Under the pieces are notes generated by a model, which was not told the origin of the DNA, made no database searches, and saw only the letters and a program-made list of their open reading frames with translations. A DNA stretch of 55,038 bases, filler included, from Jimgerdemannia flammicorona (Eukaryota): NCBI GenBank assembly GCA_003990765.1. It is 3 parts of 3 records of this genome, joined end to end, with 100 filler letters (N's around TTAATTAATTAA, not from the genome) between each part and the next. Parts side by side here need not be neighbours in the genome. Positions count along the whole stretch, not along the records: positions 1 to 18,287 come from RBNJ01002248.1; 2 more parts are not named here. One strand, written 5' to 3'. This document shows, piece after piece, positions 2,438-55,038 of this stretch; position 1 is the first letter of the stretch, and every line of letters begins with the position of its first letter. Position numbers and translations under genes: made by a program.

Positions 2438-3633
2438 CCCCTTTCTCTGCTACCTTACTGGTCATAAGGTTTGGTAGGCAACCTTCCGAGTCTTCTTTTC
2501 CCTAATATTACTCTCTCTACCTCAGGTTGGTTTGCTGTGCCTATATGGGTATGGTGGGAGGAGGACAATGGTGATGAGTTGCCCCTTTATTGGTGTCAGA
2601 TCAGTGTTTTCTCCACTTTTTCACGGTTTCTGGTATCTTCAGCTGTATCTGAAGTGTATCCGTTTTGGTGTGGTACCTTCTTCCTTTTGCCATCACCAAC
2701 AAGGTGCTGTCTCAGTATGTCTCAGGCTACATAGAGAGTCGACCAACCTTGGGCATCAAGTGCTCAGTGCAGGTTACCTACAGGTCCTCAGTGCCTATGG
2801 TGGGGCCCTCTGGCTTTGGCAAGCTTCCCGGTGAGCATGGTTCTGGTGTAGGTGACTGTTTTTTGGATGTTGTTGGGATGGGAGGAGAGATGGCTGTCAC
2901 AGATAGGAGAAAGGGCGATAATGGTGAATCAGTAGGGTGCCAGGCTGGGGGCAGTCATCAGGGCTGGGGCAGGTGCTGCTTCGGTGGGGCCTTTTGATTG
3001 GTGCGGCATGGTTAGGTGATAGGTGTCACTCTCAGCTTCTTTTGGCAGTCAGTGGGGTTGGGCCCCAGTTATCAGAGGGGATCGGGGGGCCTGAGGCTAC
3101 CCATTTCAGGCATCTTGGCTGCACTCAACTGGAACCAGGAGCTGACACGGCAATGTGATCAAGGCCCGCAGGCTTGAGTAGTGAGGTATTGGGGGTTTCC
3201 TCCCACCTTACATATAAGTCCTTTACTCATCTCGACTGAGAGAACTAGGCCCTACCCACCGTGTTGTGCTTTGATGAGGGTTTTTCTTTGCCTGTCATTC
3301 TCTTTGAGGTAGCAGGGGCTATTCTATTCGGCTCGGGTGTGGCCTTATACATATGTTGGGTTCTCAGGCATATGCTTTTGGTCATTGGCATATGGTTGGG
3401 TTTTTCCTGGTAATAGAGAGAGCATGGTGCGCAGAATGAGATGTGGGCCTACATCGGCCCTGCTGTGCCTAGCATGGTTGAACTGCTGGATAATAGCTAG
3501 CCTAGGTTAATGGGGGAGCAGTGCTTGGTGGGTGGTGGGAGAGGGTTTTGGCCTATATAGTCTAGGTTCTCTTCCAATAAAAATCTGTGGGATATGAGTC
3601 CATTAAACAAAAAAAAAAAAAAAAAAAAAAAAA
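2438..3633 (+). mobile_element. Best-preserved full-length copy of non-coding poly(A) retroposon (SINE-like)
   Basis: AATAAA near 3576, poly(A) 3609-3633, TSD tatttattaa(c/t)a at 2426-2437 and 3634-3645. Several other copies are in the window. Confidence 0.85.
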
Positions 3634-3689: not shown

Positions 3690-5885
3690 AATCTCATATT
3701 CAATAAATAGAATTTGGTAGACAGAATTTTATTTATAATCAATACATAGATATTCTTTAATGCAATTTTATTTCTGGGCATTACTGGTTATTAGATTGAT
3801 CTTAGGAGAAAATATTGCAGATACTTTATTAGTTATATCTGAGAGCTTGGGATTATAACTAAGGTAAAAAGGGGAGGCTTACAATTAGATCAGCATTTTG
3901 AGAGAAGTTTTAAAACAAAACAGATTTTAATAGTTATTTATTTTCCCATAAATTTGTCAACTAAATATTTCAAGTACAGATTTTGGCCATTTTAATGAAT
4001 AATATAATATTTTTGTGAATTTTAGTAGTTAGTCTTTAATAGAAAAATGTGGCCTTCAGTATAGAAAACTGTCATGTACATTGTTAGGCCTATGTACTGA
4101 ACCTTGCTGTTCAGGATTATCTTATATACTGTGATATATAGTATGAAATTGAAATAAGAAATAGATATTTGATTGCAGTATCTGAATCCGATTCCAAATA
4201 TAGCATAGCCTTACAAATAGCAGTTATATTTCACAAATGTTAAAGTATTTACAGATGTTAAAGATTTAACAGATGTTAAGAATTAATACTTATGAAGAAT
4301 AACTTACAGGAAACATAGTCATAACTTAGCCATCTTATAGCTAGCAAACTTATATAAATATCTTCAATATCTAGAGTAAATAAACCTCAGGTCAAAAGAG
4401 TTTGGGCCTCACTCTGATAGTCTGATAATGAGATCAGACAAATACCACTTATGACTCTGAGGAGTTAAGAAGAGTTATAGAAATCTACTACATTTCTCTG
4501 ATTATATACTTGCTATATTATAATATATAGATAAAACATCTGAAAGTAGAGGAACTCTGAGTATTGTTTCCAAGTTATACAAACTGATTATATTGGTCTA
4601 ATCATCTCCACAATAATGAGACAAATTTACTATATAGTATAGAGTGATCAATTTAATTCCAAAAGAGCTAATATTAGATATTTATATATATTGAAACTTA
4701 AAATTTACAATAATCTAGCATATGCTGGAGTTCACCATGGTATGTACTCTTTTTTTAGTTGACTAAAGTAAATTGTTTCAGATAACTGAGAATTGTTAAT
4801 TAATTTCAAAAAAAAAATTTAAAAAAAATAGTCAATAGATTCAACAGTTGCTACTGACAAAGGAAATTTAGAGTGAGACTATAGATGAAAGTGAGTGAGA
4901 TATACTAAGGAATATTATCAGAGTTTTAGAAGTAAGTAATGATTACTTTGATTCTATATTCATTTTGTCTGTCTCTATATAGTAATATAACAATTCACCA
5001 TTCTTAACTACTAGTGTTTTGATAATTGTATAAAAAATATAGTCAAAAAAACTACTCTAACAATAAGCTCTGCAATACTGATATACAATTTTTTGATTGA
5101 TCAACTAGAGGATAAGTTCAAGAATAGGCTAAAGGGTAGTAATAATTTCTAGTTTAGCCTGAATTAGAGAGATATATAGAGATTGCTCTAAGTAAGCTTA
5201 GAAAATACTACTCCAAAACAGATGCCACTATATACTCAATCAGTATAAGTATATCAGTATAGTAGTTACCCCTTCTAAAAAAAGAAAAACTCCAATAAAA
5301 CTCACACTCTTTTCTCAAAACAGTGTTGGATCCTATAATATTATAAAGATTAGAACTGAGAGCAGTACTATATTGAGGAAGCCAAGCAAGTCATAATCAA
5401 AATATACTAGAAAAACTAGATACTTCTATAAGGTTCTGGCCAAAGTCCAGATAAATATGTTGAAGGATCTCTTTTGTAACATATTTACTTCAGCAGAAAG
5501 AGAAAGAGAGAGTTATCAGTAAAAGAACTACTATCAATAGATAAACTCACTATTTACCTTATTAGTGACTATGTGATCCTGCTGAAGATTATAGAGATAC
5601 TCAACTGATAGAAGGTGGGTTGTCTTCCTACAGATAGTTGGTAGAGTTGGGCCAATTTTAACCACCACTCTAATTACTATTCTACTCCCTGAGATGTGTG
5701 GCCACAGATGCATCAAACAGACTTCTCTAATCTGTATGGTATGGCTTGGAACTATCTGGTCATTCCTGTCACCAGTACTCCAGTTAAGCAAATGTTCTCT
5801 AGTAGAGTGGATCTCATTTCTCCTAAGAGATGAATACTGAATACTGAGGCAATCTAGACTTATATATACCTAAAGTCTTGGTAGA
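3690..5885 (+). pseudogene. hAT transposase relic (intron-containing)
   Basis: Decayed motifs FLGITG(H)(W)ID near 3770 and VLDP near 5325. C-terminal dimerization-domain motif STPV.QMFSS.VDLISPKR...LKSW at 5775-5885. Many stops; parallels the hAT at 30340-32726. Confidence 0.75.
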
Positions 5886-7614: not shown

Positions 7615-9077
7615 TGTAACATTCCTGGCTCAATAGAGGCAAATTACAAGATTGGGAGTTGATGTAGTTTGGCTTGAGCCCCCAGTTACTTTGTCAAAAA
7701 GCAATAAAATGTTCTAAGATTCCTGAGGTCCTTGGTGTTTAGTGATATAATAGTCAAGGCTGGATATCTGTGAGTGATTTGTATGTTGATTTCCTAATTG
7801 AGATAGTTCTCTGGGTATAGTAGTGATTTATACAAATAGAATTTTGTGTGTAGCATGATGATCTCTATACATGATAATCTTATGTAGCATGAGTTCTTTA
7901 TGTATGATGGTCTGGCAATTTAGCAGTTCTCCTTATGCAATTTCTATATGATAATCTTGGTGTAATGATCTCTGTGTAGTGCAATGATCTCCAAAAGTAT
8001 GTGGTTTCTGATAGATGACTCAGTTTGGTGTAGCTTCTTCTGAATCAGCTTACTGGGAACAACAGATAACTTAGCAGTGGATAACTCAGATTACTTGAAT
8101 AACTCAGATGTCACAGATTCTTCCTAAATTGGCAGACTTCTGGGAAATAACTTGAGTGGTACAGATTCTTCTGAATCAGCAGCTTTAACTGGAAAATAAC
8201 TTGGATGGCATAGATTCTTCTGAATCAGCAGCTTCAACTGAGAATACTACTTGGATGGTATGGATTCTTCCTGAATCGGTAGGCTCTTCTGGGAATATAA
8301 TGATGTAGATTCTTTCTGAATTGGTGGCTTTAACTGGGAAATATGCTAGTGCCTTCTTGGAAAGGGTCTCTTGGCAAAGTTGTATCAAAGACTGGCTTCA
8401 TTTGTGCAAACAGATCACTGCAAATTTGTATCAGAAACTGGCTTGAGCAAGGTAGCTTTCTAAGAGTATGGTGAATAACTTAGAATTAGCAGCAAAGTTC
8501 TTTCTAGAACTTTTGGCAACAAACTCAGATTCTTCAGGCTTATCTGGTAAATGAACCAATAACACAGCTTATTCCTTAAGTGGTGGATTTCTCTTCAAAA
8601 GGCAGCAAAGTTCTTTCTTGAACTTGGTGGCAAAATATTCAAGCTTTGTATCAGAAAGTGGACTAGAGTGGAAAGGGGACCAATGCTCAATCTTTAGAGA
8701 CTTCTTTGGTATTTGTATTTCAGACTGAGGTTTATTCACTCTTATCTCTGGGGTAATTTATACATTGTGGTTGCTATCTGATTACTATGTGACTAACTAT
8801 AGATTTACTACTTCTGGTAATGTTTGAGTATATCCTCTAGGTACAGGTGTGTCCACAGGATATAAGTGTGTCCACAGGATATAAGTGTGTCTGCTGGACA
8901 TGAGTGTGTCCTCAGGATACAGATAAACAACTCTGATCTGGTGTCCTGGCTAATTATAAGTGTGGCAGCATGAGTAACTATAATATACTAGAAGTTATGT
9001 CATGCTGGGTAAGTATGCTAATTGTTCACATCATCTGGCTAAGTTATAATTCAAGTAGTATATTTTGATTTATTACA
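7615..9077 (-). repeat. 3' LTR of family 1 (~1.46 kb)
   Basis: Plus strand reads TGTAAC...TATTACA. Matches 17071 onward. G-rich PPT-like GTGGGGGCTAA abuts it on the minus strand. Confidence 0.85.
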
Positions 9078-9116: not shown

Positions 9117-9629
9117 TCAGTTATTATCTCAATAGGCAAAAGCAGCTTCTATATCTATACCTGTTCCATCATTATCATCTGAACTATGGTCACTCTATTC
9201 TAAGGGCTCCTCTTCTTTTTTAGAGAATAAGATCTCAACTTAGTGAATGATACTGAGGTAGGTAGGCAGTATTATCCTTTGGAGGTTATTCAGGGAGAAC
9301 TGGGCCTGGATTAAGACAGAAGGGTTCTGTTTGTAGATTGTGTATAGTCTGTTTGCAGCAGTAGTATTCCTTCTGTTCAGGCCAGTGGTGTTATGGACAT
9401 AGACCAGGTCTGAGAGGGGAAGATTCTGTAATTGTTCTCCAATTGTATAGTATGCCTACAGCTGGTGGACCTAGAGTAGTCTCTCAGCCAGAGTGAGGTT
9501 TTCTTGATGAATCTGGATTTTCTGGAGGTATGTTTTATTGGGTTTCTGGAACTGTGGCAGGAGAACTAGTAGGGCTTGAAGGGAACTGAGGATAAGGGTC
9601 TAGAGGCAGTTATCAATTCTCTGGTTCAT
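9117..9629 (-). pseudogene. ORF3 of family 1 (~170 aa, unknown function) between integrase and 3' LTR
   Basis: Manual translation MNQRIDNCL*TLIL...QL*AYYTIGEQLQNLPLSDLVYVHNTTGLNRRNTTAANRLYTIYKQNP...SDDNDG. No frameshift; all internal stops are explicable as C>T of CAG/CAA/CGA. Confidence 0.75.
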
Positions 9630-11114
9630 AGTGTGAGAAAAGGTATATCTTGAGATGATTGATGTGTACTGGTGTCCTCAGGATCCTTCCATCTATACTT
9701 CTTAAATAGATGCTGATTTCTCTGATATTGTGTATAAGATAAGATCCTTCCCATTTGGGTTCCAATTTGGTGGTAAAATTTATTTCAATCATACTTCTTT
9801 AAACTAGTACTTGATCTCCAATCTTGATCTCCTGATCCTTCTGTTTCTGGTTATAATACTTCTTTGTCTTTCTTGGGCTTTAATAATCTGACCTTAGGCT
9901 TGATTATATAACTATTCCGCCTTCTTGAGGAGGTCTCTGAGATTCTCATGGTCAGCAGTTCTGGTTTTCTTAGCAAATATCATTTTGAATGGCTTTTGTT
10001 TAGTAGAGGCAGTAGGGGTGTTCTGAATTTCCCATAGGATCTCAGATAAGCAGAGGTCTCAATTAGTAGGATTGACTTAGACAAGTTCTTTCTTGATGGT
10101 CTGGTTCATTCTCTCTGTCATGTCATTGGTCTGAGGGTGATATGATGTGGTCTATTTGAGGTGGATCTTGTGAATTCAAACATAACTTGTGATTATATTA
10201 TTGATAAATTCTGTGCCTCAGTCAGAGATGAGTTCTTCTGGGGGTCTATATCTGAGTATGAGTCCATTTTGTTTTACGGACTCTATGTCCCATGGATTTT
10301 TATTGGAAGGGAACCTAGGCTATATAGGCCAAAACCCTCTCCCACCACTCATCAAGCACTGCCCCCCCATTAACCTAGGCTAGCTATTGTCTAGCAGCTC
10401 AACTATGTCAGGTGCAGCAGGGCCTATGTTGGCCCACACCTCATTCTACACACCATGCTCTCTCTACCACCAGGGGAAACCCAGCCATACACCAATGACT
10501 GAAAGCACATGCCCGAGAACTCAACATATGTACAAGACCATATCTGAGCTGAATAGAATAGCCCCTGCCACCCTAAATAGAATGACAGGCAAAGAAAAAA
10601 CCCTCATCAAAGCACAATACAGTGGGTAGGGCCTGGTTCTCCCAGTCAAGGTGAGTAGAGGACTTACACATGATCTGAGTATGAGTCCATGGAGAAGGCC
10701 TACAATAGTTAAGGCATCTGTGATTTCCATTAGAAAAGCCTTGGGCCACTTGGTCAGATATTTTACAAATACAAGAATATATTTATTTCTTCTTGGTATA
10801 ACTGGTAGAGGTCTAATTATATCTATTCTCTATCTCTGGAAGATGTTGTCTGGTGGTGTGATTGGTTATAATGATGTTTGATAGTTCTTCCTTCCTTGGT
10901 ACTTCTGGCAGGTGTCACATTTCTTAAGTATGTTCTGGACTTATTTTCTGAGATTGGGCCAATGTTGGTGTGTTGTTCATAGCTTCTCTTCTATATTCGC
11001 CTGTCCCTGGTGAGCTTTCTGATGTTCTACTCAGATGAGATCTTCTTGTACCTTGATGGTCTGAGGAGCTTCCTTTAGAGTGTAGTTCCTCAGGACACCC
11101 ATCTTCTGGTTCAT
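9613..11114 (-). pseudogene. Integrase ORF of family 1 (own ATG; interrupted by retroposon)
   Basis: MNQKMG...HQKAHQG...KCDTCQK zinc finger, VFVKYLTKWPKAF, SYHPQTNDMTERMNQT, ends INHLKIYLFSHYEPEN*. Confidence 0.85.
10268..10672 (-). mobile_element. 5'-truncated poly(A) retroposon copy inserted in integrase, 18-bp TSD
   Basis: ATCTGAGTATGAGTCCAT is duplicated at 10250-10267 and 10673-10690. The body matches the 3' ~400 bp of 2438-3633. Confidence 0.9.
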
Positions 11115-14100
11115 TGGGGTTGGTAGGAAAGCATATCAACATTGTTGTGAGCTTTTCCTACTTTGTGGATGATGGTGATTTTGTAATTCTGAAGAATAAG
11201 GATCCAGCAGGCTAGGATTCCAGTGGATTTCTTATGGTTGAATAGCCATTTGAGAGCTATATAGTCTGTAATCAGGGTGAACCTTTTTCCAATGAAGTAA
11301 TGTTTGAACAGAGTGACCACCTATATGACTGTAAGGCATTTCAGTTTAGTACTACCATAGTTCATCTGCTGCTGATTGGTAGCTTGGCTTGCATAAGCTA
11401 TCATATGGTATTATTGGTCAGGTCCTTCTTGGGCTAGAACTGCTCCTAGGCTATCTTTGGAGATATCTGTATATAAGATAAATGACTTCTATAGATTGGG
11501 GTGTACAAGGATTGGTGCTGTAGTCATATGGTTCTTGAGTTCTTTGAAGGCTATTTCTTGTGATTCTATCTACTTGAATAGCACTCCTTTCTTGTGAAGG
11601 ATTTGGATTGGGGTAGCAATTTGGGTGAAATTCTTGATAAATCTTCTATAGTAGGATACTAGCATCAGAAATGATAATATTTCCTTTGGGGTCTTGGGTA
11701 CTGGCCAATTGTTGATCTTTTCAGTTTTCTTTAGATCTGCATAGATTCCTTCTTTTGAAACTATGAATCCAAGAAATTCAAGTTTCTGTTTGCCAAAGTA
11801 GCATTTCTTTATATTCAATCTCAAGTGGTTCTTGCAGGTGAGCTTGAAGAATTCCTCTAGATAGCATAGGTGTTCTTCGAAATTTGCTAAATAGATGTTG
11901 GAATTGTCTATATATACAACCAGGCAGTGGTGGATCAAGAGAGCATAGACTGAATTTATCATCCTCTGAAAGGTGGGGGGTATATTACAAAGTCTGAAAG
12001 GTATTCAGAGGTATTCAAACAGTTTTCCCAAAGCAAGAAAGGCTGTCTTTTGAATGTCTTTTGGGTTCATAGGGATCTTATGGAATCCCATGAAAAGATC
12101 CATACTGCTGAAGTATCTGGTATTCTGTAACTGATCCAAAAGGTCATCGATTCTGAGCAAAGGATAGACATCCTTTTCAGTGACTGAATTGAGTTTTTTG
12201 TAATCTATACAGAGTCTCTATCCTCCTTTCTTTGGTACAATAAGTATAGGGCTGGCCCAGGAACTAGTTGAAGGTCAGATGACTCCATTGTCTAAGAGTT
12301 CTTGAATATGCTCCTTTTCAAATGTTTTTAAGTGATAGAGTATTCTATAGGGTTTCTGCTAAATGGGTGTTGCATTTCCTGTATTTATGCTATAGTGATA
12401 TAATGAGTTGTATAGCAGGTTGCCATAATTGGTAGTAAAGATATCTTGATATTTATTGAGAAGTTCTACTAGTTGTTGCTGTTGTTGGGGTATCAATTCT
12501 TCTCCGATGTTGGTGGAAGGCTTCACTATTTCCTCGGTCACAGAGGGGCCTTTCCTTTCTTCTGGAACCTTTTTCCATCTCCTGATAGGTTTAGTTCATA
12601 AACTTCCCTATGAGTTTGACTAAGAAATGGCACCAAATATCCTATAATGGTTCCTTTCAGCAAGATGATAGCTTCTCAACTTTGATTGGTTGCTTGGGAG
12701 TGCACTGGGTTCATCTTGTCAGGAAAAGTGTGTCCTTCTATATCCAGGTGGGGAATATCTTTCTTGGGTTCAAAGAAAAGGTTTCTGGGATCAGGTGGTG
12801 CAAAGATTCCAAAGGTAGTTTGCTCTCCAGGCTCTAGGATGAGATTCTTGTACAGTTTAACTAGTTGGTGGTATACTTGCTGAGGAACATTCCTCTTGAG
12901 GTGGTTGACTTGAAGGAGATATACTTCCATCTGGTCTGAGCTTCCAAATCCTTTGACTTGTCTTGTTCCTTCAGTCAGTTCAGAGACTTCTTATAATTGT
13001 GGAGTCTTGACTTTCATGAAGACTGCTTGAGCAATCTTCTGTCCTCTAATAATTCAGTGCCACTCTGTGCTGCTATTGTGTAGGATGACCTTGATTTCAC
13101 CTATATATCCTGGGTCAATGGTTCCTCCTTCTATAGTTATTCCTTGTCTGGCAAGTCTAGACCTTGAGGTCAGTTGGATGTAAGCTCCTTGGAGTAACTG
13201 CATGGCTAATTTGGTTCTGATCATGAAGGTTTTTCCAGGCTTAATAGATTTATCCTCCAGACTGTGAAGATCATATTCTATATCCTCTGGGTGGGCTTTG
13301 GTTGGAGGTTTGGCCTTGGAATGCAGCAGGGTATACTGGGCAATATCCTTGCTAAGTTCAGGCTGACCTAAGGCTGAAGCTCCACTAGCAGAGAGCCTCC
13401 AGGCTCTGAGGTTGAGGTATGGCCATCTAGCTCCAGAGAGGGGTCTTGGAGATAGTTAATTTCTCTTCTTCCTGTAGGATCTAGGGCTTCCATGAAGCTG
13501 GTGGCATCTTCTGTCTATTCTTGGTAGGTTGTATGTCTGATGAGAGCTAGGATGTCTTCTCCCAAATCATAGATCTTGAGGGTTCTTTTTCCTGGCTTCC
13601 TGGTCTGACTTTTTTGGATCTGGCTTCTATTGTCTCCTCTCTTCAAGATATGGATTGCAACATCATGACTGAGGTGAATCTTCTGATATCTGCAGTCTTG
13701 ACAATCTGGGTATCTTTTATGGTTACAATATCCCATTGCTCTGAAATGATGTTCCCGGTTATTGATCTCTTATTGTCTTGGGAATCAGTACCCATCTTGG
13801 TCATAAGTTGGTGGAAGAGTAGACAAGGGGTATACTTCTGTCCAGGTGAAAAGGCCTTGTCCTCTGAATCAGCTTTGCAACTTGGTGGTAACTTCTTGGA
13901 AGATAGTTAACTGTGCAACTGTATTTGGGGGTTCTGGTCTCTGGGGTCTCTGTTTCTCCTGTTGATCTAGTAGATGGTACTGATAGCAGTAGTCTCAGAG
14001 AGAGTGGAAGACCATTTGGTGTGGACATCTTCCTAGCCAAAAAGTCTTTTCTTGGTGAGTTTCTTTCTTGGGAATAATGGTGATTGTGCTGGATCCCTCT

Positions 14101-17070: not shown

Positions 17071-18270
17071 TGTAATGTGTCTGGCTCAATAGAGGCAAAT
17101 TATAAGATTGGGGGTTGATGTAGTTTGGCTTGAGCCCTCAGTTACTTTGTCAAAAAGCAATAAAATGTTCTAAAATTCCTGAGGTCCTTGGTGTTTAGTG
17201 GTATAATAGTCAAGACTAGATATCTGTGAGAAATTTATATATCGATTTCCTAATTGAGATAGTTCTCTAGGTGTAGTGGCAATTTGTGTGAATAAGTTTC
17301 TTTCTTGATCAATCTGAGAATTGGTAGAATTTTGTGTATAGCACGATGATCTCTGTGTATGACAATCTTGTGTAGTATGGGTTCTTTATATATAATAGTC
17401 TGGTAATTTAGCAGTTCTTCTTATGTAATTTCTGCATGACAATCTTGGTGTAATAATCTCTATATAGTGTAATGATCTCCAAAAGTATGTAGTTTCTAGT
17501 GAATGACTCAGTTTGGCACAGCTTCTTCTGAATCAGCTCACTGGGAACAATGGATAACTTGGTGGCATATAACTCAGATTACTCAGATAACTCAGATGTT
17601 GTGGATTCTTCCTAAATTGGTAGACTTCTGGGAAATAACTCAAGTGGAACAGATTCTTCTAAATTGGCAGCTTCAACTGGGAAATAACTCAGATAGTGTA
17701 GATTCTTCTGAATCAGTGACTTCAACTGAGAATACTACTCAGATGGCATAGGTTCTTTCTGAATCAGCAGGCTCTTTTGGGAATATGATGGCATAGATTC
17801 TTCCTAAATCAGTAGTTTCAACTGAGAAACATGCTAGTGGCTTCTTGGAAAGGGTCTCTTGGCAAAGTTGCATCAAAGACTGGCTTCGTTTGCATAAATG
17901 GATCACTGTGAAGTTACATCAGAAACTGGCTTAAGCAAGGTAGCTTTCTGGAAGTGTAACAAATAACTTGGAAATAGTGACAAAGTTCTTCTTAGAACTT
18001 TTGGCAGCAAACTCAGATTCTTTAGGCTTATCTGACAAGTGAATCAATAATGCAACTTATTCCTTAAGTAGCAGATTTCTCTTCAAAAGGCAGCAAAGTT
18101 CTTCTTTGAACTTGATAGCAAAATCTTCAAGCTTTATATCAGAAAGTAGACCAGAGTAGAAAGGGGACCAATGCTCAATCTTTAGAGGCTTCTTTGGTAT
18201 TTGTATTTTGGACTGAGGTTTATTTTATTCACTCTTATCTCTGAAGTAATTTATACATTGTGGTTGCTTT
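17071..18270 (-). repeat. 5' LTR of family 1 (partial)
   Basis: Direct repeat of 7615-8775; ends at poly(T)/gap. Confidence 0.85.
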
Positions 18271-18287: not shown

Positions 18288-18387
18288 NNNNNNNNNNNNN
18301 NNNNNNNNNNNNNNNNNNNNNNNNNNNNNNNTTAATTAATTAANNNNNNNNNNNNNNNNNNNNNNNNNNNNNNNNNNNNNNNNNNNN
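18288..18387. other. Artificial contig linker (N + TTAATTAATTAA)
   Basis: 100-base N run containing a six-frame stop motif. Confidence 0.95.
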
Positions 18388-20563: not shown

Positions 20564-23500
20564 ATGGCAAGTAAGGCTGATCCTCTTGGGTCTAAGAGGG
20601 ACCTATCGTGTATGAGATGTAGGGGAAAGAAGGCCAGGCAAGTCTTCTTTATTTAGAATCCACCTAATAGGGTCCCTCCGTGCCAAAGTTTGACGTGTGC
20701 GTGTAACGGATCCGCCACAGGGTTTAACTTCGTGGCTTTTGGTTTTTGCATACATTTTCAATCTACACAGGTGCTCAAGAACAAAGCCGAAATGTAGCCG
20801 ATGCGCACGCGGCAAACACGATGTACGTTTTGTGCCTACTGAGCGTGCTCTTGCGTACTTCTCTCACACACCGCCTCTTCCCCCACACACCGCTTCTTCT
20901 CCCACACACACGAAATTGTGAACTCAGCCCGCGCCAACCTCTCTTCCCACTTCGTTTCCCGGTCTTCACTCCCGCCCTGCCCTCTTACATACAGTGCATA
21001 TACCCTACCGTCGCCCCCTCTCTCGGCAAGCTTTCCAACCAAGTCACCACGCTCTTCGACGCCCTCGGTCGCCTGGAACACCGGCTCGCGGTGATTGGGG
21101 GCGACGAGCTCACACCTCGACCCGCCCTCGACCCGTGTGTCCCCATAGGTAACGACGATGGGGACAGCGATGTAGACGACGATGCGGACGGCAGTGGCGA
21201 CGACAGCCCAGACGACAGTAGTGTGACGATTAAGGTTGGTGGCGGCAAGAAGCGCGGCAAGGTGAACGAGACGTTGAAGCCACACGAAATTTTACAGACG
21301 ATCGCCGGGCTTCACTCGGTGCTGGAGCGGCTGGACGAGCGAACCAAGGTGCTGGTAGAGCGGCAGGTGGCGTCGGCAGCTGGGGAAAAGGCGAAGGCAC
21401 TGGCCGGGGACAAGATGCAGTTGGAGCGCGAGGAGGACAAGGACGAGGACGGGAACGGTCTGAACGAGTCGCAGCATCATCTCGCGACTAAGGGCGCGTT
21501 GATTGCGGACGGGAGCGCCCCGGCGCGATCCCGCGCAAAGCGTCAAAAGCATCAAGATCAGCCGGCGGAGGTCAATCCCATGCTCGCTATGGCGTTTGTC
21601 GCGCCCTCTCCACCACCCCCGCCAGCCTTGTGGACGATTGCTTCATCACCGGCTGGGATTACGATCCAGGCGAGCGTGCAGAACCTCAACGACCTGTCCG
21701 CGTTCCTGCAAGACTTTAAGAAACTAGGCGTGAATGACGAGGCCGAGGCGGACGAGAATGGCTCTTCGTCCTCGCCTTCGCCGATCCCTACGAAAAACCA
21801 CCTCCTCACCGATTCGGCGCATAACGCCAATCAGACCACTTTGCTTCCCACAGACAACACGACCGTTCTACACATCACACCGACCAAAGGTTTTGGCAAG
21901 GAAGCCATCATCGAATTCAATAAAGACGGCCCCAATCTAACGCCAGGGCACTCTCGTACTCCCAACGAACTTGCGACGCAAAGCGTCATAAAGGACGTAC
22001 TACACGCCTACTTCGAGTACCGGTGCTGCCACCAGCAGCGCACGGTCTTCCTGGAGCGCGACTCCTTCTACCGCGAACACTACGGGTCGGCCACTCTCCC
22101 GCCGGTCACAGACCCGTCCTCAACACCCTCGCTCCTGCTTATTTACTCCATGTGCGTCTTCTCCTGCAAGAAATTTTACCGACTGCACCCGCCAGCCACT
22201 AACCAGAATCGCCCGTGGTTTGCCAACCAGCAATTGGTCGTCGCGATGGAGGATTGGTTCTACGAGCAGTCGCGCACGCTCCTCGCCGAGTGCTTCGACA
22301 CCCCCTCCCTGGCCGTTATCCAGGCCCTGATCCACCTGCACTACTTCGAGTGCTTCCGCAAGAACCACAAAGTTGCCTATATGCTCATCGGTATGGCCAT
22401 CCGCATAGCCTTTGACCTCCGCCTCTTCCGCACCGAGGAAGCGGACGAGGCACCCGCACCCGCGCTGGCTTTCTCGCCAGTCTTTGCCGCGGCGACAGCG
22501 GCGGCGACGACGACGGTGACGATGGCGGCGACGACGACGGCGACAGTGGCGGCGATGGCGATGACGACGGCGACGGCGACGGCGACGGCGTGCGACAGCC
22601 CGCGCAGCCCGTACTCGGAAGATTCGTTGGACTCGTCGAGCACGTTGTCGAGTCTGAGTTCGATGACGCGCGCCAAGGAAGAGAGGCGTCTGACCACCTT
22701 CAAACTGCTCTTCCTCGACCTCTTCTCCGCTTTCCATGCCGGAGAACCCTCCGTTATCGACGACCGCGAGTGGGACCGCATTCCTCTGCACCGCAAGCGC
22801 ATCGAGCTCAGCATTACACACGAACCTTGCGAGGCTGACCCGGCAAGGCTCGCGTGCGTCCAACTGTTCCTTAACAACATGACACTCATGCGCGTACAGA
22901 AGCGCATCATGGCAAAGCTATACTCGCCCGAGGCGCAGGATCGCGCGGCAAGAGTGATGGCGGCTAAGACCGGGACTATCAGCACACCCTATGGCCCTGG
23001 CTCCCCCTTCCCGGACGACGAAGACGAGCATCTGGTAACGCGCACAGTGAACATGCTTCACGGAGAGTTGACGGAATGGTACCGTCAGTTACCAGATTAC
23101 TTTGTCTTCGACCCCCAAAACCCAGACGCAAACCCCACCTTCCCGCCTGCTGCCCTCCCAATGCATCCGCCACCCTACATTCCCCCCGCGGCACCGTCGG
23201 CCGCGCGCATGCGCACACTTTGCCGCCTTGTGCTGCACCAATTTTATCAACTGAACCGGATCTTTCTCTACCAGCTGTTCATCCCGACGTCGGCGGATGA
23301 CCAATCGGTCTCGTCCGTTGACTTCTTGGAGATGTGCCTGGACGCCGCACGTTCCATTACCCGACTGACGGAGATGTTGGTCGAGGAAGGGTCGTGCTTC
23401 ATCAACCTGCAGTCCGTCTTCTTCGCGGGTATGATCTATGTAAAGTACGCCAAGCTGTACATAGGTGACCCGGCGATTGTCGCTGAAGCAGAGAAGGGCC

Positions 23501-23655
23501 TGCTAAGGTGTGCCCAGGCACTCAGGGGGAGTCTGTCGTTCAGGTTCGAGCTTGATCTGTGCCAGGATTACGTAGTGCACATCGAGGAGTTCATTAGCGA
23601 ACTGAAGAAAGCTGTCGCCACACAGGCACAGGAACAGATGCCGGAGAACGCGTAG
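20564..23655 (+). CDS. Zn(II)2Cys6 fungal transcription factor with fungal-TF middle homology domain; exons 20564-20637, 20771-20822, 20995-23655
   Basis: Spliced N-terminus reads SCMRCRGKKARCSRTKPKCSRCARGKHDCIYP. The motifs SLAVIQALIHL...AYMLIGMAIRIAFDLRL and EERR...LFLD are typical of Fungal_trans. Confidence 0.9.
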
Positions 23656-29720: not shown

Positions 29721-29762
<42 letters not shown>

Positions 29763-40772: not shown

Positions 40773-41877
40773 ATATAGCTATGAGATTGAGTAATTATTA
40801 ACTATAATATTATATTATATTAGAAATTAGATTTAGATATTACAATTAAATAACTATCTCCTAATTATACTTTCTAATTTGGATCAATTATTATAACTTT
40901 CTTCTGAATAAGTAGTTTTATCTCTAAATTAATTTATTCAAATTTCTAAGCTTTTATTAGTTATATATTCTTATACTATTAATTTACTTAATTATATTCT
41001 TCTAATAATATCTTTTTATTTATCAAAAATCTTTTAAGACTACTTCTCAAAAATGAGTCAGAGCTTACTTATTATCTTTAAATAGTTTGTAGACCCACTT
41101 AGTAATAGTAATTTAGGAATAGAATATCTGATATTTAGTAATCTACTCTTCTTTAATTATTCTTTTTCTTATTTAGTAATTGTCTTAGCTTAAAGTAAAT
41201 CTGAAACTCAGTATAGTCTTAGTAGACTCTAAAGTTTAAAATATATAATAGGTAGATCTATATGATACTTTGAATATTATCATGAATTTCTCTATAGTTG
41301 ATAGCTCAGTAGAATATCATTATCTTTTTATAGCTCACTGAGTAGTACTAGTGATCTTAAGAGCTACAGTAATATCTTATTGACTAGCTATGTTATTTTT
41401 TGAGTTAATTTTAATAGATAGTAGTAGAGATGATTGTGTCTAATAGTTTTTATAGCTAAAAGATAGTTTTTTTTTTTATATTTTATATAAGATAAGATTC
41501 TTCTTACTTAGGCTTTAGTTTTTATAATTATGAAGCTTCTATCATATTCTGATATATCAGAACTTTATTATATATCTTAATAATCTTCAAAGGCTTGTAA
41601 ATCTTCTCTATATATTCTATTATAATATCTACATCTTGCTTATATAATCTTTAGTATTTTTCTTATTTAGTATAATTTCTATATCTTAGTATTTATTCAT
41701 TTTTATATTATAACTCTATTAGATAATAAGATTCCTTTAGAACTTTCTTCTCTAAATAGTAATTTTTAAGAGATAAAATGAGTGTTTTGTAATTATATAT
41801 ATTTTTAAGAGCAGATAATGCTATTAACAAATAGTGGTCTTAATTTTTATTATTATTGCAAATCTTAGTAATAATAT

Positions 41878-46468: not shown

Positions 46469-48002
46469 TGTAACAGTAACCCCAGAATGATGACATCAGC
46501 ACAGGAGACAGCCTTTCTTTACAAGCCACTAGATCGGAGTACAAGAAGATTATACAGTATATAAGATGAGCAATGATGACCAACTGTGAGTCATTGTGAC
46601 CACAGCACAAGCATTCCAAAGAATATAAAAGAAGGATCAAGAAACCGCAGTAGCAATAACCAAAACCACCAATCCCAAAATAGCTCAAAGACTTACCACA
46701 AACAAAATGCCTGCTGCTCACCAAACCTCAAGGTCAAGGAATCATCAAGATATCTCGGTCGAGGAAAGGATGTTCCAAGACATCAGAAGAGCCATGAGAA
46801 CCTGCTCAAGAAGGACTCCTAGTGTCAACCTGGGTACTGCAGACCCCTATCACTTTATTCTCTACTACTGCGAAATGGAAACAAGGATCACTATTGCCAC
46901 CGAATACCTCCAAATGTGGCAGAAATATGAAATAGGAAACCTCCTCTGCTGGGAGTTCCCACAGGCCAGCCCTCAAGAGCTACAAGATGCTACTCCCATG
47001 AACCTATGTGAGGCAAGAACAGTAAAGAAGATCTATCAGATCTTCAGGCATACACCATGGTTGATCCCCAACTTGGAGTATGTTAGAGTCTCAGACTTTA
47101 GAGACCTGTCATCCTGCCGTATCAATGCACTAGAAGCCAGGGTAGCCACAGAAGTCCAGTCCACCATCACCCTCAACAGTGAAGAAGTAGAAGACTTCTG
47201 GCACCCTATCCTTCAGAACAACCCAGACCAATTCCTGCAAGGATTGATCTCAGTATTCCAAGGCCCAAGCATCTGGGTTAGATCTCCCCAAGACCCCACA
47301 TTTGTCCCCTATTTTGTGGAAGAGAACCTCATAGACTGAATAGCTCCAGATCTTGTTCCTGATTTCCCTGCCGAACGTGATGACATCATCGATGACATCA
47401 TCCGGCGTGACATACCCGAAGCACGCGAAGTACACGAAATGCATAATAATGAAGTATGCGAGATGCGTGGCCTGCACGACGAATTTGCAGACCTCATCTC
47501 CTTCAGTGATGATGATGATGAAGCTCCCATGGTCCTGAACTTTCTGCTCTAAGTTCTTTGTTACACTGGATAATGCCAGCACCGGTATTCTCATGTAACA
47601 CTGGATAATGCCAGCACTGGTATTCTGAGATGATGCAAAATTGTTCCAGCACTGGCATTTTGATGTGATACTAAATAATGTCAGCCCTGGAACTTAGTAG
47701 TTTTAGTTATTGAAATTTATATTTAGCTTTATATCTTAGCAACCATTGAATTATATTTTGTATAAATACCTCTCTTATTTTCTCTGAAATAAAGTCAGTC
47801 AAGTTCCGGTTTCACTTACACACACTTTCTTGCAAGTAATCTAAGAGATAACAAGACAGTTAAAGATAAGAAGTTTGAGGACTATAAGACCTAGGGAAGG
47901 CACTCCAATAAGAACTTACTTATAACAACTTGAGTTAGTCTAAGAGATACACCTTGAAGAGAATCTGGCATATTTGAAGGACTCAGTGACCACTATGTGA
48001 CA
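46469..48002 (+). repeat. 5' LTR of family 2 (1534 bp)
   Basis: TGTAACA...TGTGACA ends; TATAAATA at 47761; AATAAA near 47788; direct repeat of 53707 onward. Confidence 0.9.
46707..47552 (+). pseudogene. LTR-encoded ORF3 (281 codons; one TGG>TGA stop at 47337)
   Basis: The frame continues past the stop to ...EAPMVLNFLL*. The other LTR has TGG at that codon. Confidence 0.8.
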
Positions 48003-51100: not shown

Positions 51101-52152
51101 CCCTTGGAAGTGAAGCCAAATACTACACCACCTTGGATCTGTTCTCAGGCTTCCATCAGATCGGTCTCACTCAAGATGCCAGTGAGAAATCAGCCTTCAT
51201 CACACCTGATGCCACCTACATCTATCTGCAAATACCATTTGGAATGTACAATGCCTCAGCAAGTTTCCAGCAAATAATGAACAGAGTCTTCAGCAATGAG
51301 ATTGGAAAATAGCTCTTTATCTATGTTGATGATGTGATCATCTTCAGCAATACTGCACGGGAACATATCAATCATATACAGCTAGCCCTCAAGAGGCTCA
51401 AGGAGCATGGCCTCTACATCAAGCCCAAGAAATGCAAGTTTGCAGCTCAAGAAATCACCTACCTAGGATACCTCATCAACCAGACTGGAATCCACACAGA
51501 CCCCATGAAGATCAAGGCTGTTGTAGCCTATCCAAGATCCAGAACAACCACAGAAGTCCATGCCTTCCTTGGACTGGCCAGCTACTACAGAAGATTTATC
51601 AAAGGATACTCCAACATTGCAGTACCTATCTATGAGCTATTGAAGAAGGAGACCAAATTCGAATGGACCAAGGAGTGCCAAGAAATCTTCAATGAACTTA
51701 AGACCAGGTTGACCCAAGCACCCATCCTCAGAAGACCAGACTGGAACCTAGAATTCATCCTGCAGATAGACACAAGTGCTATAGGACTTGGAGCGGTCCT
51801 AGCTCAGAAGAAAGATGGACATGAATATGTCATCTCCTATGCAAGCCGAGGTACCTGCAGAGCAGAGCAGAACTACGAGTCATACAAGCTTGAATGCTTA
51901 GCAGTAGTTTGGGCAGTAGACAAATTCCACTACTACCTAGCTGGAAAACACTTCACCATTCAGACAGACCATTCCGCTCTTGCCTGGCTATTCCACACTC
52001 TGAACCCCAAAGGAATATATGTCAGATGGATCTACAGACTGCAAGAATATAACTGTACTATCAAGCACCGCCCAGGAAAGACCAACACCAATGCCAATGC
52101 ACTCTCAAGGACACCCCAAAACATCCCCATCAAGACTATTCAACATGAATAA
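48124..52152 (+). pseudogene. gag-pol single frame: gag, CCHC, protease, dUTPase, RT, RNase H (several in-frame stops)
   Basis: (C)FRCGEEGHYAKN(C), AIIDTSAGG, LCIDYRKLN, YVDD, ILQIDTS...TDHSAL...NANALSR. The ORF-track pieces from 48226 to 51334 share one frame. Confidence 0.92.
50218..50635 (+). CDS. dUTPase domain (intact motifs) between protease and RT
   Basis: GAIGMDL, TRSSLA, GGIIDPDYTGEI, DRIGQ, KRGEQGFGSTG. Confidence 0.95.
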
Positions 52153-53392
52153 GGAGCTATACTATGGATTAATTAGCTACCTTGGGCAGCGGAAGATGCC
52201 CAACCACCTTGAACCCTGGACAATCACTATCATCAACCAAACTTGGAAACAGTTTGAATTAGACAACACTACACTCAGAAAAGGAGGAAAGCTAGTAATA
52301 CTTGAACACAAGAAGTATCAAGTAATGAAGGAAGTACATGAGCAAGGACACTTAGGAGGAACTAACATATATGACAAGGCAAGAAGAACTATATAGTGGC
52401 TCAAGATAGAAGAAGACCTATGCCAATTTGTCAAAGGGTGTAACAAGTGCCAAAAACAGAAACAAGATCAGCAAGACCAGGCACCCGGATCATCAAGAAT
52501 CGAACCTATCCCCTTCCACCATATCGCAATGGATATCATTGGACCACTACCAGTAACACTATCAGGAAACCACTATATTATAGTTATTGTAGACCTCTTT
52601 ACCAAATGGATAGAGGCAGGAGTATTACAAGAAGTCAATGCCTTCTCTATAGCTGATTTTCTATACCGAGAAATCATCTGCTGCTACAAGACACCAAAGC
52701 AAATCACAATAGACCACGGCACAGAATTTGTCAATGGATTCCATGAGATAATATACCAGAAATACAAGATCCAGTACATCAAGACCACCACATACCACCC
52801 TCAAGGAAATGGACAGACAGAGAGAACCAACAAGACCCTCAAGAACATCCTAGCAAAGATCTTAGAGACATATGAGAATTGGGATAACTATCTCTCAACT
52901 GTCCTCTCTATTCTACGAGACACATGATCACAGAGCACACATTTTACCCCAAGAGAGCTGCTCTTTGGAGAAGAAGATTCTAATGGAACCTCAGTCATAA
53001 ATCTAGACCTAACTTGGAGACAGGTTGATGCAGAAATCCAGAGACTATACCAAATTAGGAAGAAGACTGAAGATTATATCACCAAGTCACAAGCACTGAT
53101 AAGGAAGAATGTGGAAAAGAATCACAAGGCCCTAGAACCCATCCGAATTGGAGAAAAGGTTCTACTGTATCGAAATATGGTAGAAGGCTCATGGTTACGA
53201 AAACTGGAGCCCAAATGGGAAGGACCCTTCTACATGCAAGATATCAAGGGAACTACCTTCTGGCATAGAAAAATCTCAGAGACCATACTGCCTACCATGG
53301 TACATAGGAACAGACTCAAGAAGTACCACGAACCTATACAAGAGAAGCAAAATGTGATGACTGCCCATGAGGTTCTAGTCCATGAATCGTAA
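52145..53392 (+). pseudogene. Integrase ORF of family 2 (separate frame, own ATG)
   Basis: MNKELYYG...HEQGHLG...C.KCQK, MDIIGPLP, DLFTKW, TIDHGTEF, YHPQGNGQTERTN, KLEPKWEGPF. Confidence 0.9.
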
Positions 53393-53706: not shown

Positions 53707-55038
53707 TGTAACAGTGACCCCAGAATGATAACATCAACACAGGAGATAGCCTTTCTTTACAAGCCACCAGATCGGAGTACAAGAAGATCATATGGCATAT
53801 GAGATGAGCAATGATGACCAACTGTAAGTCATTGTGACTACAGCACAAGTATTCCGAAGAATATAAAAGAAGGATCAAGAAACTGCAGTAGCAGCAACCA
53901 AAACCACCAATCCCAAAATAGCTCAAAGACTTACCACAAACAAAATGCCTGCTGCCTGCCAAACCTCAAGGTCAAGGAAGTATCAAGGTATCTCAGTCAA
54001 GGAAAAGATGTTCCAAGATATCAGAAGAGCTATGAGAACCCACTCAAGAAGGACTCCTAGTGTTAACCTGGGTACTGCAGACCCCTATCACTTTATTCTC
54101 TACTACCGTGAAATAGAAACAAGGATCACCATTGCCACCAAATGCCTCCAAATGTGGCAGAAATATGAAATAGGAAACCTCCTCTGCCAGGAGTTCCCAC
54201 AGGCCAGCCCTCAAGAGCTACAAGATGCCACTCCCATGGACCTACATGAGGCAAGGACAGCAAAGAAGATCCATCAGATCTTCAGGCATGCACCATAGTC
54301 AATCTCCAACTTGGAGTATGTTAGAGTCTCAGACTTCAGAGACCTGTCATCCTGCCATATCAATGCACTAGAAGTTAGGGTAGCTACAGAAGCCCAGTCT
54401 ACCATCACCCTCAACAGTGAAGAAGTAGAAGACTTCTGGCACCCTATCCTTCAGGACAACCCAGACCAATTCCTGCAAGGATTGATCTCAGTATTCCAAG
54501 GCCCAAGCATCCGGGTTAGATCTCTCCAAGACCTCACATTTGTCCCCTATTTTGTGGAAGAGAACCTCATAGACTGGAGAGCTCCAGATCTTGTCCCCAA
54601 TTTCCCTGCCGAACATGATGACATCATCGATGACATCATCCCATGTGACATACCCAAAGCACGCAAAGTATATGAAATGTGTGATAATGAAGTACGTGAG
54701 ACGCGCAGCCTGCATGACGAATTCGCAGACCTCATCTCCTTCAGTGATGATGATGATGAAGCTCCCATGGTCCTGAACTTTCTGCTCTAAGTTCTTTGTT
54801 ACACTGGATAATGCCAGCACCGGTATTCTCATGTAACACTGGATAATGCCAGCACTGGTATTCTGAGGTGATGCGAAATTGTTCCAGCATCAGCATTTTG
54901 ATGTGATACTAAATAATGCCAGCCCTGGAACTTAGTAGTTTTAGTTATTGGAATTTATATTTAGCTTTATATCTTAGCAACTATTGAATTATATTTTGTA
55001 TAAATACCTCTCTTATTTCCTCTGAAATAAAGTCAGTT
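53707..55038 (+). repeat. 3' LTR of family 2 (partial)
   Basis: Direct repeat of 46469-47800. Confidence 0.9.
53945..54790 (+). pseudogene. LTR-encoded ORF3, second copy (one TGG>TAG stop at 54296)
   Basis: Same 846-bp frame as 46707-47552, with its stop at a different codon. Confidence 0.8.

Follow-up and report, generated by a model that had tools for sequence, protein, structure and literature searches.

The window analysed here is a stretch of 55,038 nucleotides from Jimgerdemannia flammicorona (assembly GCA_003990765.1), in which a preliminary description had reported an unnamed accessory ORF, here called ORF3, shared by three different Ty3/Gypsy elements. In family 1, ORF3 occupies positions 9117..9629 on the minus strand; its translation has 171 codons with six internal stops and contains the strings AYYTIGEQL, TTAANRLYTIYKQNP and NNLQRI. 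A helical domain of ~135 aa comes first, followed by an acidic tail. Its ATG (9627-9629) precedes the integrase stop codon (9613-9615) by 14 nt, and that stop, in a different reading frame, lies inside the 17 nt with which ORF3 opens; these positions bear out the reported overlap of the ATG with the integrase end. The integrase remnant is the C-terminal (SH3-like) end of the protein (9613..9798, minus strand), recognized from the ORF list, from tblastn and from an alignment with the integrase of the metagenomic locus L001 (see below), and it is 45% identical to the C-terminus of the family 2 integrase (E 6.8e-13, tblastn).

Downstream of ORF3, at a distance of 342 nt, lies the 3' LTR of family 1 (7625..8775, minus strand), whose extent is given by the reach of its homology with the 5' copy in self-BLAST. 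The 5' LTR was found by self-BLAST at 17081..18268 (minus strand); its true start is uncertain, because its outer end adjoins a poly(A/T) run and a block of N/linker, and it carries a 49-bp tandem repeat in 3.7 copies (17587-17767). The two LTRs are 83.6% identical over 1188 columns (self-BLAST), and transitions account for 154 of their 161 differences. A gene with a Fungal_trans domain is also present in the window, at 20728-23655, and was taken as evidence for a fungal host.

Of the six internal stops of family 1 ORF3, four are TAG (codons 10, 53, 58 and 145), one is TAA (codon 130) and one is TGA (codon 167). When intact homologues are aligned with this frame, they have Q, Q and Q/E at codons 10, 53 and 58, and W at both 145 and 167; codon 130 is T/Y/H in these proteins, but Q in P0019 and P0020. 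Each stop is thus explained by a single C>T or G>A transition. The claim of a 171-codon ORF after integrase, hidden by C>T stops, is therefore upheld by the translation and by the intact homologues. The window copies are heavily marked by RIP-like transitions with a CpA/TpG bias, a pattern that would suit Dikarya better than Mucoromycota.

The family 2 element presents a different arrangement, its LTR enclosing the entire gene ahead of the TATA box. The 5' LTR (46469..47799, plus strand; a minimum extent from self-BLAST, first letters TGTAACAG) encloses all of the first ORF copy (46707..47552, plus strand; 281 codons, from ATG 46707 to TAA 47550-47552). The 3' LTR (53707..55037, plus strand; self-BLAST), which is cut by the end of the window, is directly preceded by the purine tract AGGAGGAAGA (53697-53706) and holds the second copy (53945..54790, plus strand). 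Because the ORF is wholly inside the LTR, a full element has two copies of it. The LTRs are 92.9% identical (self-BLAST), with transitions making up 91 of 94 differences. Copy 1 is interrupted once, by a TGA at 47337 replacing W, and copy 2 has one TAG, at 54296, likewise replacing W; an open stretch of 236 codons is present. Both contain QKYEIGNLL, RT[VA]KKI[YH]QIFRH and SDFRDL, and in-frame indels are found in the tail only. With each copy open apart from a single W-to-stop change, and with intact homologues, the LTR ORF described earlier is real.

Reading the 5' LTR downstream of the ORF reveals a TATA box, TATAAATA (47761-47768), and an AATAAA (47788-47793). Judged by these two signals alone, the family 2 ORF would be in U3. 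The interval from the ORF stop to the TATA box holds 35-bp tandem repeats (47559-47695, plus strand; 1.9 copies, 93% matches), of which repeat family D5 shows a third, degenerate copy; they may possibly serve as an enhancer. Near the 5' end of the LTR, TATATAAG was considered as a promoter for the ORF and rejected: the 3' copy reads CATATGAG instead, differing by transitions, so that TATATAAG is probably mutational. Past the stop of the family 2 integrase (52004..53389, plus strand; Pfam rve and Integrase_H2C2, ORF list), the 3' LTR follows after 317 nt and the ORF ATG after 555 nt. Both family 2 and L001 have the domain order Asp_protease, RVT_1, RT_RNaseH, rve and Integrase_H2C2 (Pfam), which is that of Ty3/Gypsy elements. 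A dUTPase (PF00692) is encoded upstream of RT in family 1 (E 1.2e-13), family 2 (E 1.2e-29) and L001 (E 1.6e-15).

In family 3 the ORF is a heavily AT-mutated relic spread over two frames (41017..41200, minus strand), just downstream of an integrase C-terminal domain (41387..41590, minus strand; tblastn, 42.6% identity, E 9.7e-9). The strings reported for it can indeed be read on the minus strand, divided between two frames: IYFKLRQLL from 41200, ITITKWVYKLFKDNK followed by a stop from 41109, and KDF-stop-stop-I. Profile signal is confined to 41017-41115 (7.0 bits, i-E 0.16; the next unrelated match in the same scan reached 1.2 bits), and 0 of 2000 shuffles equalled this second-half score. The first half, with IYFKLRQLL, scores -1.3 bits against the profile and contributes nothing, so that of the relic as first described the second half stands and the first is without statistical support. 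On balance, the relic is probably homologous to the family 1 and 2 proteins, a third member of the group. A candidate fourth relic, the AT-rich segment 32131-32421 (7.4 bits with the family-1 HMM), was discarded since no pol relic surrounds it.

Homologues of both proteins occur as open frames in databases, although database ORFs are gene-caller picks, and the intactness of these homologues is therefore partly a matter of ascertainment. Those of family 1 (P0006, P0007 and P0008, at 59-64% identity, then P0017-P0024) include intact proteins of 171-172 aa at 58-64% identity, with a conserved start, M[NT]QRID, and a conserved finish, Y[PA][YH]W[DN]DD. Those of family 2 are 215-342 aa long, P0001-P0005 being 54-81% identical. 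A search of the representative library gave 8 matches at E <= 1e-3; P0013 and P0014, from that search, were set aside as repeat-driven false positives. Scanning viral contigs with both ORF3 profiles returned no relative, and the metagenome scan with these profiles returned a single locus, L001. This contig has the gene order dUTPase, RT, RNase H, integrase and then an ORF3 frame that is open up to the contig end, and it independently confirms the reported location 3' of a Gypsy integrase.

Comparison of the window copy of family 1 with L001 yields a dN/dS of 0.21 for ORF3, over 78 codons and with dS saturated (1.66), and 0.12 for the integrase C-terminus. The earlier proposal had named a ratio near 1 as a refuting result, and a value of about 0.2 is well away from that, within the same limits of 78 codons and saturated dS. 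Nucleotide identity, estimated from the alignment, is about 70% on the ORF3 side of the integrase stop and 88% on the pol side. As far as these sequence comparisons go, ORF3 is a real gene kept under purifying selection. The intact homologues with their conserved ends, the dN/dS of ~0.21 and the Fungal_trans gene together sustain the earlier view that a lineage of fungal Gypsy elements encodes a conserved accessory protein.

In family 1, and in family 3 as judged from the spacing, ORF3 starts at the integrase stop or no more than about 17 nt from it. This placement raises the question of a functional tie to integrase: a protein produced together with pol would anchor the pre-integration complex on chromatin or on some host factor, in place of the chromodomain. 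Consistent with such a role, the window ATG is <= 17 nt from the integrase stop, the L001 codon at the ORF3 start position (ATA) overlaps that stop, the integrases have no chromodomain by Pfam, and the tail, being acidic, might attach to histones or to the basic integrase. The frame relation argues the other way: relative to integrase, ORF3 is at -1 in L001, and an 11-nt indel puts the window copy at +1. The N-terminal extensions of P0017, P0020 and P0021 match an alternative frame of the integrase end. An integrase-ORF3 fusion made by frameshifting is ruled out by the differing frame relation. The coupling is also not conserved, since in family 2 the gene is LTR-internal and starts 555 nt beyond the end of integrase. 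A partnership with integrase is accordingly quite unlikely to be the function of ORF3.

Are the family 1 and family 2 proteins actually related? Direct comparison is blank, with no BLASTP alignment between the families at E <= 100 and no ORF3 alignment by between-family tblastn at E <= 10. A profile comparison had been put forward as the check on common ancestry. The two families do align in hhalign, with a P value that fell from 0.049 to 0.0013 and then to 0.00078 (8e-4) as diversity was added, the aligned region staying the same and being the one pointed out in the preliminary description; the hhalign probability is 25% only. In a local rerun the score was 30.1, against 17.3 and 17.4 for reversed profiles, and 0 of 200 column shuffles matched it (highest 27.2). 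The family-2 HMM, run over the six-frame window, has family-1 ORF3 as its top non-self match (10.2 bits, i-E 0.016; next 3.0), while in the other direction the family-1 HMM gives the family-2 ORF 7.5 bits, which is at the level of the 7.4 bits for the unrelated AT-rich 32131-32421. Among 4500 shuffled decoys, 5 of 9 family-1 proteins rank in the top 9 and the other 4 are indistinct; in the reverse test 4 of 8 rank in the top 11 of 4000, the other 4 again being indistinct, and in neither test are the members independent.

Non-homology would mean that the three ORFs are independent captures at the same element site, with motif likeness arising from chance and from a shared helical/acidic-tail composition. 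The blank BLAST searches, the 25% probability and the noise-level scan with the family-1 HMM all lean that way, and independent capture of extra ORFs is documented for LTR elements of bdelloid rotifers (PMC5408684). Against it, every method chose the same colinear region, no column shuffle reached the actual hhalign score, and the bridging sequences P0020 and P0021 match P0001 and P0003 by BLASTP (E 0.003-0.007). Seven predicted helices follow in the same order and with the same lengths in both families, which is soft evidence because AF2 confidence is low (mean pLDDT 56.0 and 52.5), and a second motif, W-[SR]-x-P-D, precedes the acidic tail in both. Non-coding likeness between the families, at the LTR starts and in the region after the ORF, scored inside the shuffled null. 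Independent origins are thus improbable, and profile evidence at P ~1e-3, together with position and architecture, indicates that the proteins of families 1 and 2 are probably remote homologues.

The N-terminal ~130-160 aa of the protein are predicted to form a domain of seven helices, all-helical in the AF2 models; the earlier description as a helical protein agrees with these low-pLDDT predictions. One long helix closes with the motif [YF]-x-I-G-x-x-L, and ~22 residues further on is a basic amphipathic helix, A-x-[KR]-[KR]-[IL]-[YH]-x-[IL]-[FY]-[KR]. The pI of the helical part is 9.1-10.3 in family 1 and 6.1-8.7 in family 2, the latter near neutral and not clearly basic. Close family-2 members also have an arginine-rich N-terminal stretch, RRAMRTR[ST]RR. 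The C-terminal tail is disordered, studded with W, F, Y and L, and strongly acidic; its net charge of -15 to -28 matches the acidic tails reported for families 1 and 2. In 10 proteins from both families the N-termini are polar and the highest Kyte-Doolittle mean over 19 residues is 1.36, so that no TM-like segment is present and the protein is, as had been stated, not env-like. Nor is it a chromodomain, a point also made before: the Chromo family is absent from the Pfam scans of the integrases and ORF3 proteins (E <= 0.1 or 0.01).

Searches for a named family gave a consistent answer. Neither the L001 piece nor any of 7 ORF3 sequences matched a Pfam family, the one sub-threshold row being LST1 for P0006 (E 0.062, and 13.9 bits where the cut-off is 22.3). 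Among PDB sequence profiles, ORF3 profile A7 had 0 matches and A6 had two, at E 1.4 and 1.6; with Foldseek, the ORF3 models had no PDB match better than E 0.68. In the VIA wide search the top Z values were 6.0, for a designed helical filament, and 4.2, which are within noise for helical models, and the ESM Atlas gave TM <= 0.37 to clusters that are unnamed or unrelated. Several of the nearest Atlas clusters are common to both ORF3 queries, an observation that serves as a lead only. Considered as a possible duplicate of gag, ORF3 gave no signal at the level of sequence: its HMMs reach 1.2 bits at most when run against translated gag from families 1 and 2. No description of the protein was found in the open-access full-text literature. 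The preliminary description had recognized no named family, and Pfam, PDB, Foldseek, VIA and the ESM Atlas are all without a match. In our reading, ORF3 represents a new family of accessory proteins, encoded by fungal Ty3/Gypsy elements that bear a dUTPase and lack a chromodomain.

What might such a protein do? The best overall explanation, to which we assign a probability of roughly 0.7, is that ORF3 is a maintained accessory gene for a soluble helical protein with an acidic tail, placed as described above and presumably acting as a regulator. The product would be an element-encoded regulator of 170-340 aa, whose basic helix may act on nucleic acid and whose acidic-aromatic tail may recruit host machinery. 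In family 1 it could be made from the genomic RNA by reinitiation after pol, and in family 2 from a short transcript internal to the LTR.

A regulator of this kind might act on RNA, in the manner of Rev or of CERV, with the basic helix binding unspliced genomic RNA for export, stability or packaging and the tail contacting host factors of export or assembly. Long introns requiring export control are unusual in fungi, which counts against this idea, and the RRAMRTR[ST]RR stretch that, along with the basic amphipathic helix, would suit RNA binding in close family-2 members is not kept in P0010, P0011, P0016 or family 1. There is also no likeness to Rev itself: the Rev assembly domain, with Z 4.0, is only the 29th in a list of generic helical matches. 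CERV of the Cer1 element does offer a precedent for a Ty3/Gypsy accessory protein that is not env and has such a role (PMC10309623). An RNA-directed role is on this evidence unlikely.

Counter-defence against host RNAi, heterochromatin or RIP-like mutation is a further candidate. The heavy, CpA/TpG-biased transition mutation of the window copies (the 154/161 and 91/94 LTR differences given above) indicates that host defence is strong, and the faster divergence of ORF3 than of pol would fit an arms race. However, a dN/dS of 0.21 reflects constraint and not positive selection, no known suppressor resembling the protein was found, and the case is circumstantial throughout; we regard this function as very unlikely.

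The single likeliest role for the protein would be that of a transactivator of its own element's LTR, a suggestion that is tentative. In its fuller and more doubtful form, the basic helical domain would read the LTR tandem repeats, the acidic aromatic tail would activate, and the gene would have been absorbed into U3 in one branch.

The extra genes of LTR retrotransposons, such as env, CERV and the plant and rotifer ORFs, give a rare view of the dealings between element and host, and those of fungi have so far been noted just as being of 'unknown function'. ORF3 is a family under purifying selection across elements that share as little as about 30-45% identity in their pol proteins, and it comes in two arrangements, start-on-stop with integrase or entirely within the LTR. 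Annotation pipelines that take LTRs as non-coding will miss a gene borne there. If ORF3 is a regulator, regulation like that of complex retroviruses arose in fungal elements, and the protein offers a handle on how they are switched on.

Among fungal elements, the closest counterparts by description come from a 2010 survey of Ty3/Gypsy elements (PMC2864245), in which one type, PosPlaTy3-5, has a dUTPase between PR and RT and in which an extra ORF of unknown function is mentioned. Families 1 and 2 and L001 share this position of the dUTPase; unlike them, the surveyed elements mostly bear a chromodomain, and the extra ORF can be compared by description only. Another fungal Gypsy group with a gene beyond the usual set is that of the Boty-like (BcGypsy1) elements of Botrytis cinerea, whose brtn (Zhao et al. 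2011, cited in PMC8365987) is described as antisense, whereas ORF3 is on the sense strand in 3 of 3 elements; this comparison is one of orientation. CERV of C. elegans Cer1, made from a spliced mRNA and acting in nuclear export of genomic RNA (PMC10309623), is likewise a non-env, non-enzymatic Ty3/Gypsy protein besides gag and pol that regulates its own element, and as described there it differs from ORF3 in its animal host, its spliced mRNA and its export role. The chromodomain of chromoviruses occupies the same place, directly after the integrase C-terminal domain, but ORF3 starts from an ATG of its own in a separate frame and has no chromodomain match.

Vertebrate retroviruses provide two further parallels. 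The sag gene of MMTV is an ORF within the U3 of the LTR of a mammalian retrovirus, and the family 2 ORF, wholly in an LTR of ~1.3 kb and there in what would be U3, resembles it in position; the family 1 ORF is outside the LTR. Sag is a (type II) membrane glycoprotein, whereas ORF3 has an acidic tail and no hydrophobic segment. Tas (Bel1) of foamy viruses and Tax of deltaretroviruses are transactivators encoded 3', toward or into the 3' LTR. ORF3 does not belong to their families by sequence, given that Pfam returned only the sub-threshold LST1 row. By analogy, ORF3 is similar in that its gene comes after those for structural proteins and enzymes, on their 3' side, and in its proposed design of a binding domain joined to an acidic activation region, and the LTR shares with theirs the tandem repeats upstream of the TATA box. 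If the transactivator reading is true, a Tas/Tax-like circuit would exist outside animals, and in the branch with the gene in U3 every LTR, including solo LTRs, would hold a copy of the activator and could spread it.

The sequence evidence indicates that ORF3 is a real and conserved family of accessory proteins, not named before, that belongs to a fungal Gypsy lineage and is found in two unusual gene arrangements. The preliminary description had proposed such a protein, and it is upheld by intact homologues, by the dN/dS ratio and by a position 3' of the integrase. The absence of any named family also held, in that family and fold searches returned no match, and full-text searches of open-access papers found no description of the protein.

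The elements were defined by self-comparison of the window and six-frame reading. Family 1 (minus strand) has LTRs at 7625-8775 and 17081-18268, with 83.6% identity between mates; 19 nt of a poly-A/T run separate the end of the 5' LTR from the first N block, and its true start is uncertain. Family 2 (plus strand) has LTRs at 46469-47799 and 53707-55037 (92.9% identity), the 3' LTR being cut by the window end. Family 3, on the minus strand, is represented by a fragment at about 41387-45412 that retains parts of RNase H and integrase; other repeats break into it, and family 2 lies directly against it. By sequence, families 1 and 2 are distinct elements, with 41% identity in RT/RNase H and 30-45% in integrase pieces. 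A dUTPase (PF00692) lies between protease and RT in family 1 (13057-13455, minus strand, E 1.2e-13), in family 2 (49780-51309, plus strand, E 1.2e-29) and in the metagenome contig L001 (3-851, E 1.6e-15). The integrase core of family 1 contains, at 10267-10673, an inserted piece of about 400 bp from a ~1-kb dispersed repeat. Other copies lie at 2440-3624, 34495-35858, 42521-43106 and 43327-44484, one of which also breaks up the family 3 integrase; the repeat probably represents the LTR of a fourth element.

The window is judged fungal from a 975-codon open frame at 20728-23655 (plus strand) encoding a fungal-specific transcription factor domain (PF04082, E 4.4e-13). This frame has about 58% GC and is the sole clear host gene seen, with transposon-rich, AT-rich DNA on both sides. 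The N blocks at 18288-18387 and 36674-36773 are identical, each consisting of 44 N, the 12-mer TTAATTAATTAA and 44 N; we take such blocks to resemble a contig-joining spacer, and the window is probably three joined contigs. Two near-identical low-complexity runs of about 105 nt (29722-29826 and 39234-39353) are inverted matches of one another at many different offsets.

Transitions, with a CpA/TpG bias, make up 96-97% of the differences between LTR mates (154 of 161 in family 1 and 91 of 94 in family 2). Together with the low GC at 39-42 kb (20-23% in 39000-42000), they point to RIP-like hypermutation of repeats, and this transition pattern accounts for the C>T stops of ORF3.

The family 1 frame at 9117-9629 (minus strand, 171 codons) translates exactly as first reported, with six internal stops: TAG at codons 10, 53, 58 and 145, TAA at 130 and TGA at 167. 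When 5.8 billion proteins were searched with X in place of each stop, 38 candidates yielded three proteins: P0006 (171 aa, covered in full at 61% identity), P0007 (172 aa, 59%) and P0008 (137 aa, 64%). That the stops hide a gene was borne out by the homologue alignment, where all six occupy Q, Q, Q/E, T/Y/H, W and W positions. A later profile search added P0017-P0024, including P0019 (169 aa) and P0020 (183 aa), both full-length and 58-59% identical, which share the family 1 start and also a terminal Y-x-Y-W-[DN]-D-D. Because homologues match in length, start and end, the 171-codon gene is real and the window copy is its mutated remnant.

The position of family 1 ORF3 is conserved in L001, a single contig of 4101 nt, where open frames encoding dUTPase, an RT-RNase H of 494 aa and an integrase of 361 aa, their domains confirmed by Pfam, are followed by an ORF3 frame open from 3699, inside the integrase end, to the contig end at 4100. 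Comparison of the window ORF3 with L001 gave dN 0.34, dS 1.66 and dN/dS 0.21 over 78 codons, a short stretch with saturated dS in which the direction is clear; the integrase C-terminus gave 0.12. In the window, the ORF3 ATG (9627-9629) does overlap the integrase end as described, preceding the integrase stop (9613-9615) by 14 nt in another frame. In L001 the integrase stop overlaps an ATA codon at the ORF3 start position; P0020 has Met there, and we infer an ATGA overlap for junctions of its type. The window subtype carries 11 extra bases relative to L001. A programmed frameshift fusing integrase to ORF3 is opposed by the frame relation between the two, which differs between subtypes (-1 in L001, +1 in the window) and argues for independent ORF3 initiation near the pol stop. 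The pol segments and ORF3 of the otherwise uninterrupted L001 each lie in the -1 frame of the preceding one, with short overlaps (about 1310-1382, 2770-2794 and 3699-3855), and family 2 changes frame in the opposite direction exactly at its RNase H/integrase junction (146-nt overlap, 52004-52149). These changes could be mutations or a designed feature.

The family 2 ORF, as previously read, has 281 codons from ATG 46707 to TAA 47550, with one break per LTR copy at different W codons (TGA 47337; TAG 54296). It lies entirely within the LTR, which starts with TGTAACAG at 46469 and 53707, the latter immediately preceded by the purine tract AGGAGGAAGA. Because TATAAATA (47761) and AATAAA (47788) follow the ORF, it is placed, by inference, in U3. 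In the region after the ORF (47553-47800), some three repeats of 35 bp (TGTAACACTGGATAATGCCAGCAC...), which resemble the LTR 5' end in their first bases, precede these two motifs. Homologues P0001-P0005 share 54-81% identity with the ORF. When 1.84 billion representatives were searched exhaustively with a profile, eight matches were obtained at E <= 1e-3, of which six look genuine (P0001, P0009, P0010, P0011, P0012 and P0015); P0013 and P0014 were put aside as repeat artefacts, and P0016 (325 aa) is a later addition. Conservation peaks in the middle of the protein (residues ~140-215 of the window copy), and the indels keep the frame and fall only within the acidic tail.

Profile and helix evidence, plus the shared position in related elements, argues that the ORF3 proteins of families 1 and 2 are homologous, with a probability of roughly 0.8. 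Direct BLASTP and tblastn between them found no similarity. Profile-profile comparison picked the same region as the original alignment, with P falling from 0.049 to 0.0013 to 0.00078 as diversity grew (probability 25% at the last). The real score was 30.1, against 17.3 and 17.4 for reversed profiles and a maximum of 27.2 (median 12.4) among 200 column shuffles, none of which reached it. When an HMM of family 2 database proteins was run on the six window frames, the best non-self match was family 1 ORF3 (9315-9464, 10.2 bits, i-E 0.016; next 3.0). The reverse scan was weaker: the family 2 ORF reached 7.5 bits, level with the 7.4 bits of an unrelated AT-rich stretch on the minus strand (32131-32421, colinear with the family 1 profile over ~100 residues). 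No pol relic was detectable around that stretch, which was therefore treated as noise, though it could be a very old relic. Among shuffled decoys, five of nine family 1 proteins ranked in the top 9 of 4500 and, in the other direction, four of eight family 2 proteins in the top 11 of 4000; the remainder do not stand out. Searched in a small database, the bridging proteins P0020 and P0021 match P0001 and P0003 with E values of 0.003-0.007 (REARAAKRIYTLFKRN vs EARTAKKIHQIFRHA). AF2 models of low confidence (mean pLDDT 56.0 and 52.5) place seven helices in the same order, at residues 2-18, 34-68, 72-80, 84-101, 103-109, 113-118 and 121-132 in family 1 and 18-31, 47-83, 89-95, 100-113, 117-122, 128-132 and 136-149 in family 2. 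The joint alignment has W-[SR]-x-P-D before the acidic tail in both, preceded in family 2 by an extra insert of ~60 residues.

The family 3 stretch is rather likely to be an ORF3 relic, although the original reading stood only in part: its strings are present and 41017-41115 scores, but the proposed first motif, IYFKLRQLL, adds nothing (-1.3 bits). A joint HMM built from 14 database proteins ranks 41017-41115 directly behind families 1 and 2 among its matches in the window (7.0 bits, i-E 0.16; the following match 1.2), and none of 2000 read-through shuffles reached its score. It adjoins, downstream, the family 3 integrase C-terminus (41387-41590), with a spacing that fits the family 1 arrangement.

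The proteins have no transmembrane-like segment, as had been noted, and ORF3 HMMs detected no sequence similarity in the gag translations of families 1 and 2. In family 1 the helical part has a mildly basic pI of 9.1-10.3, and in family 2 it is close to neutral; on the second conserved helix, 4-6 basic residues form an amphipathic pattern. The acidic tails reported earlier have net charges of -15 to -28 and are rich in W, F, Y and L (for example ...DAEDAYPYWDDD and ...DEFADLISFSDDDDEAPLILNFLL). Acidic activation domains are acidic runs with bulky hydrophobic residues. The acidic tail and basic helix make an element-encoded regulator the preferred reading, and a transactivator of its own LTR would be the most likely role, tentative as that is. 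Tandem repeats lie upstream of the presumed promoter in the LTRs of family 2 (35 bp, 47559-47695) and family 1 (49 bp x 3.7, 17587-17767). Such a regulator might be expressed by reinitiation after pol in family 1 and from an LTR-internal transcript in family 2, both guesses from gene placement. Alternatively, ORF3 could be an integrase partner standing in for the absent chromodomain, or a counter-defence factor.

Known systems offer several comparisons. ORF3 might instead be an RNA export or packaging factor, like CERV of Cer1 (PMC10309623). A survey of fungal Gypsy elements (PMC2864245) reports several positions for dUTPase and depicts an 'add. ORF ... with unknown function', which may or may not be the same gene as ORF3. 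A further comparison is brtn of Boty, which is antisense as cited in PMC8365987.
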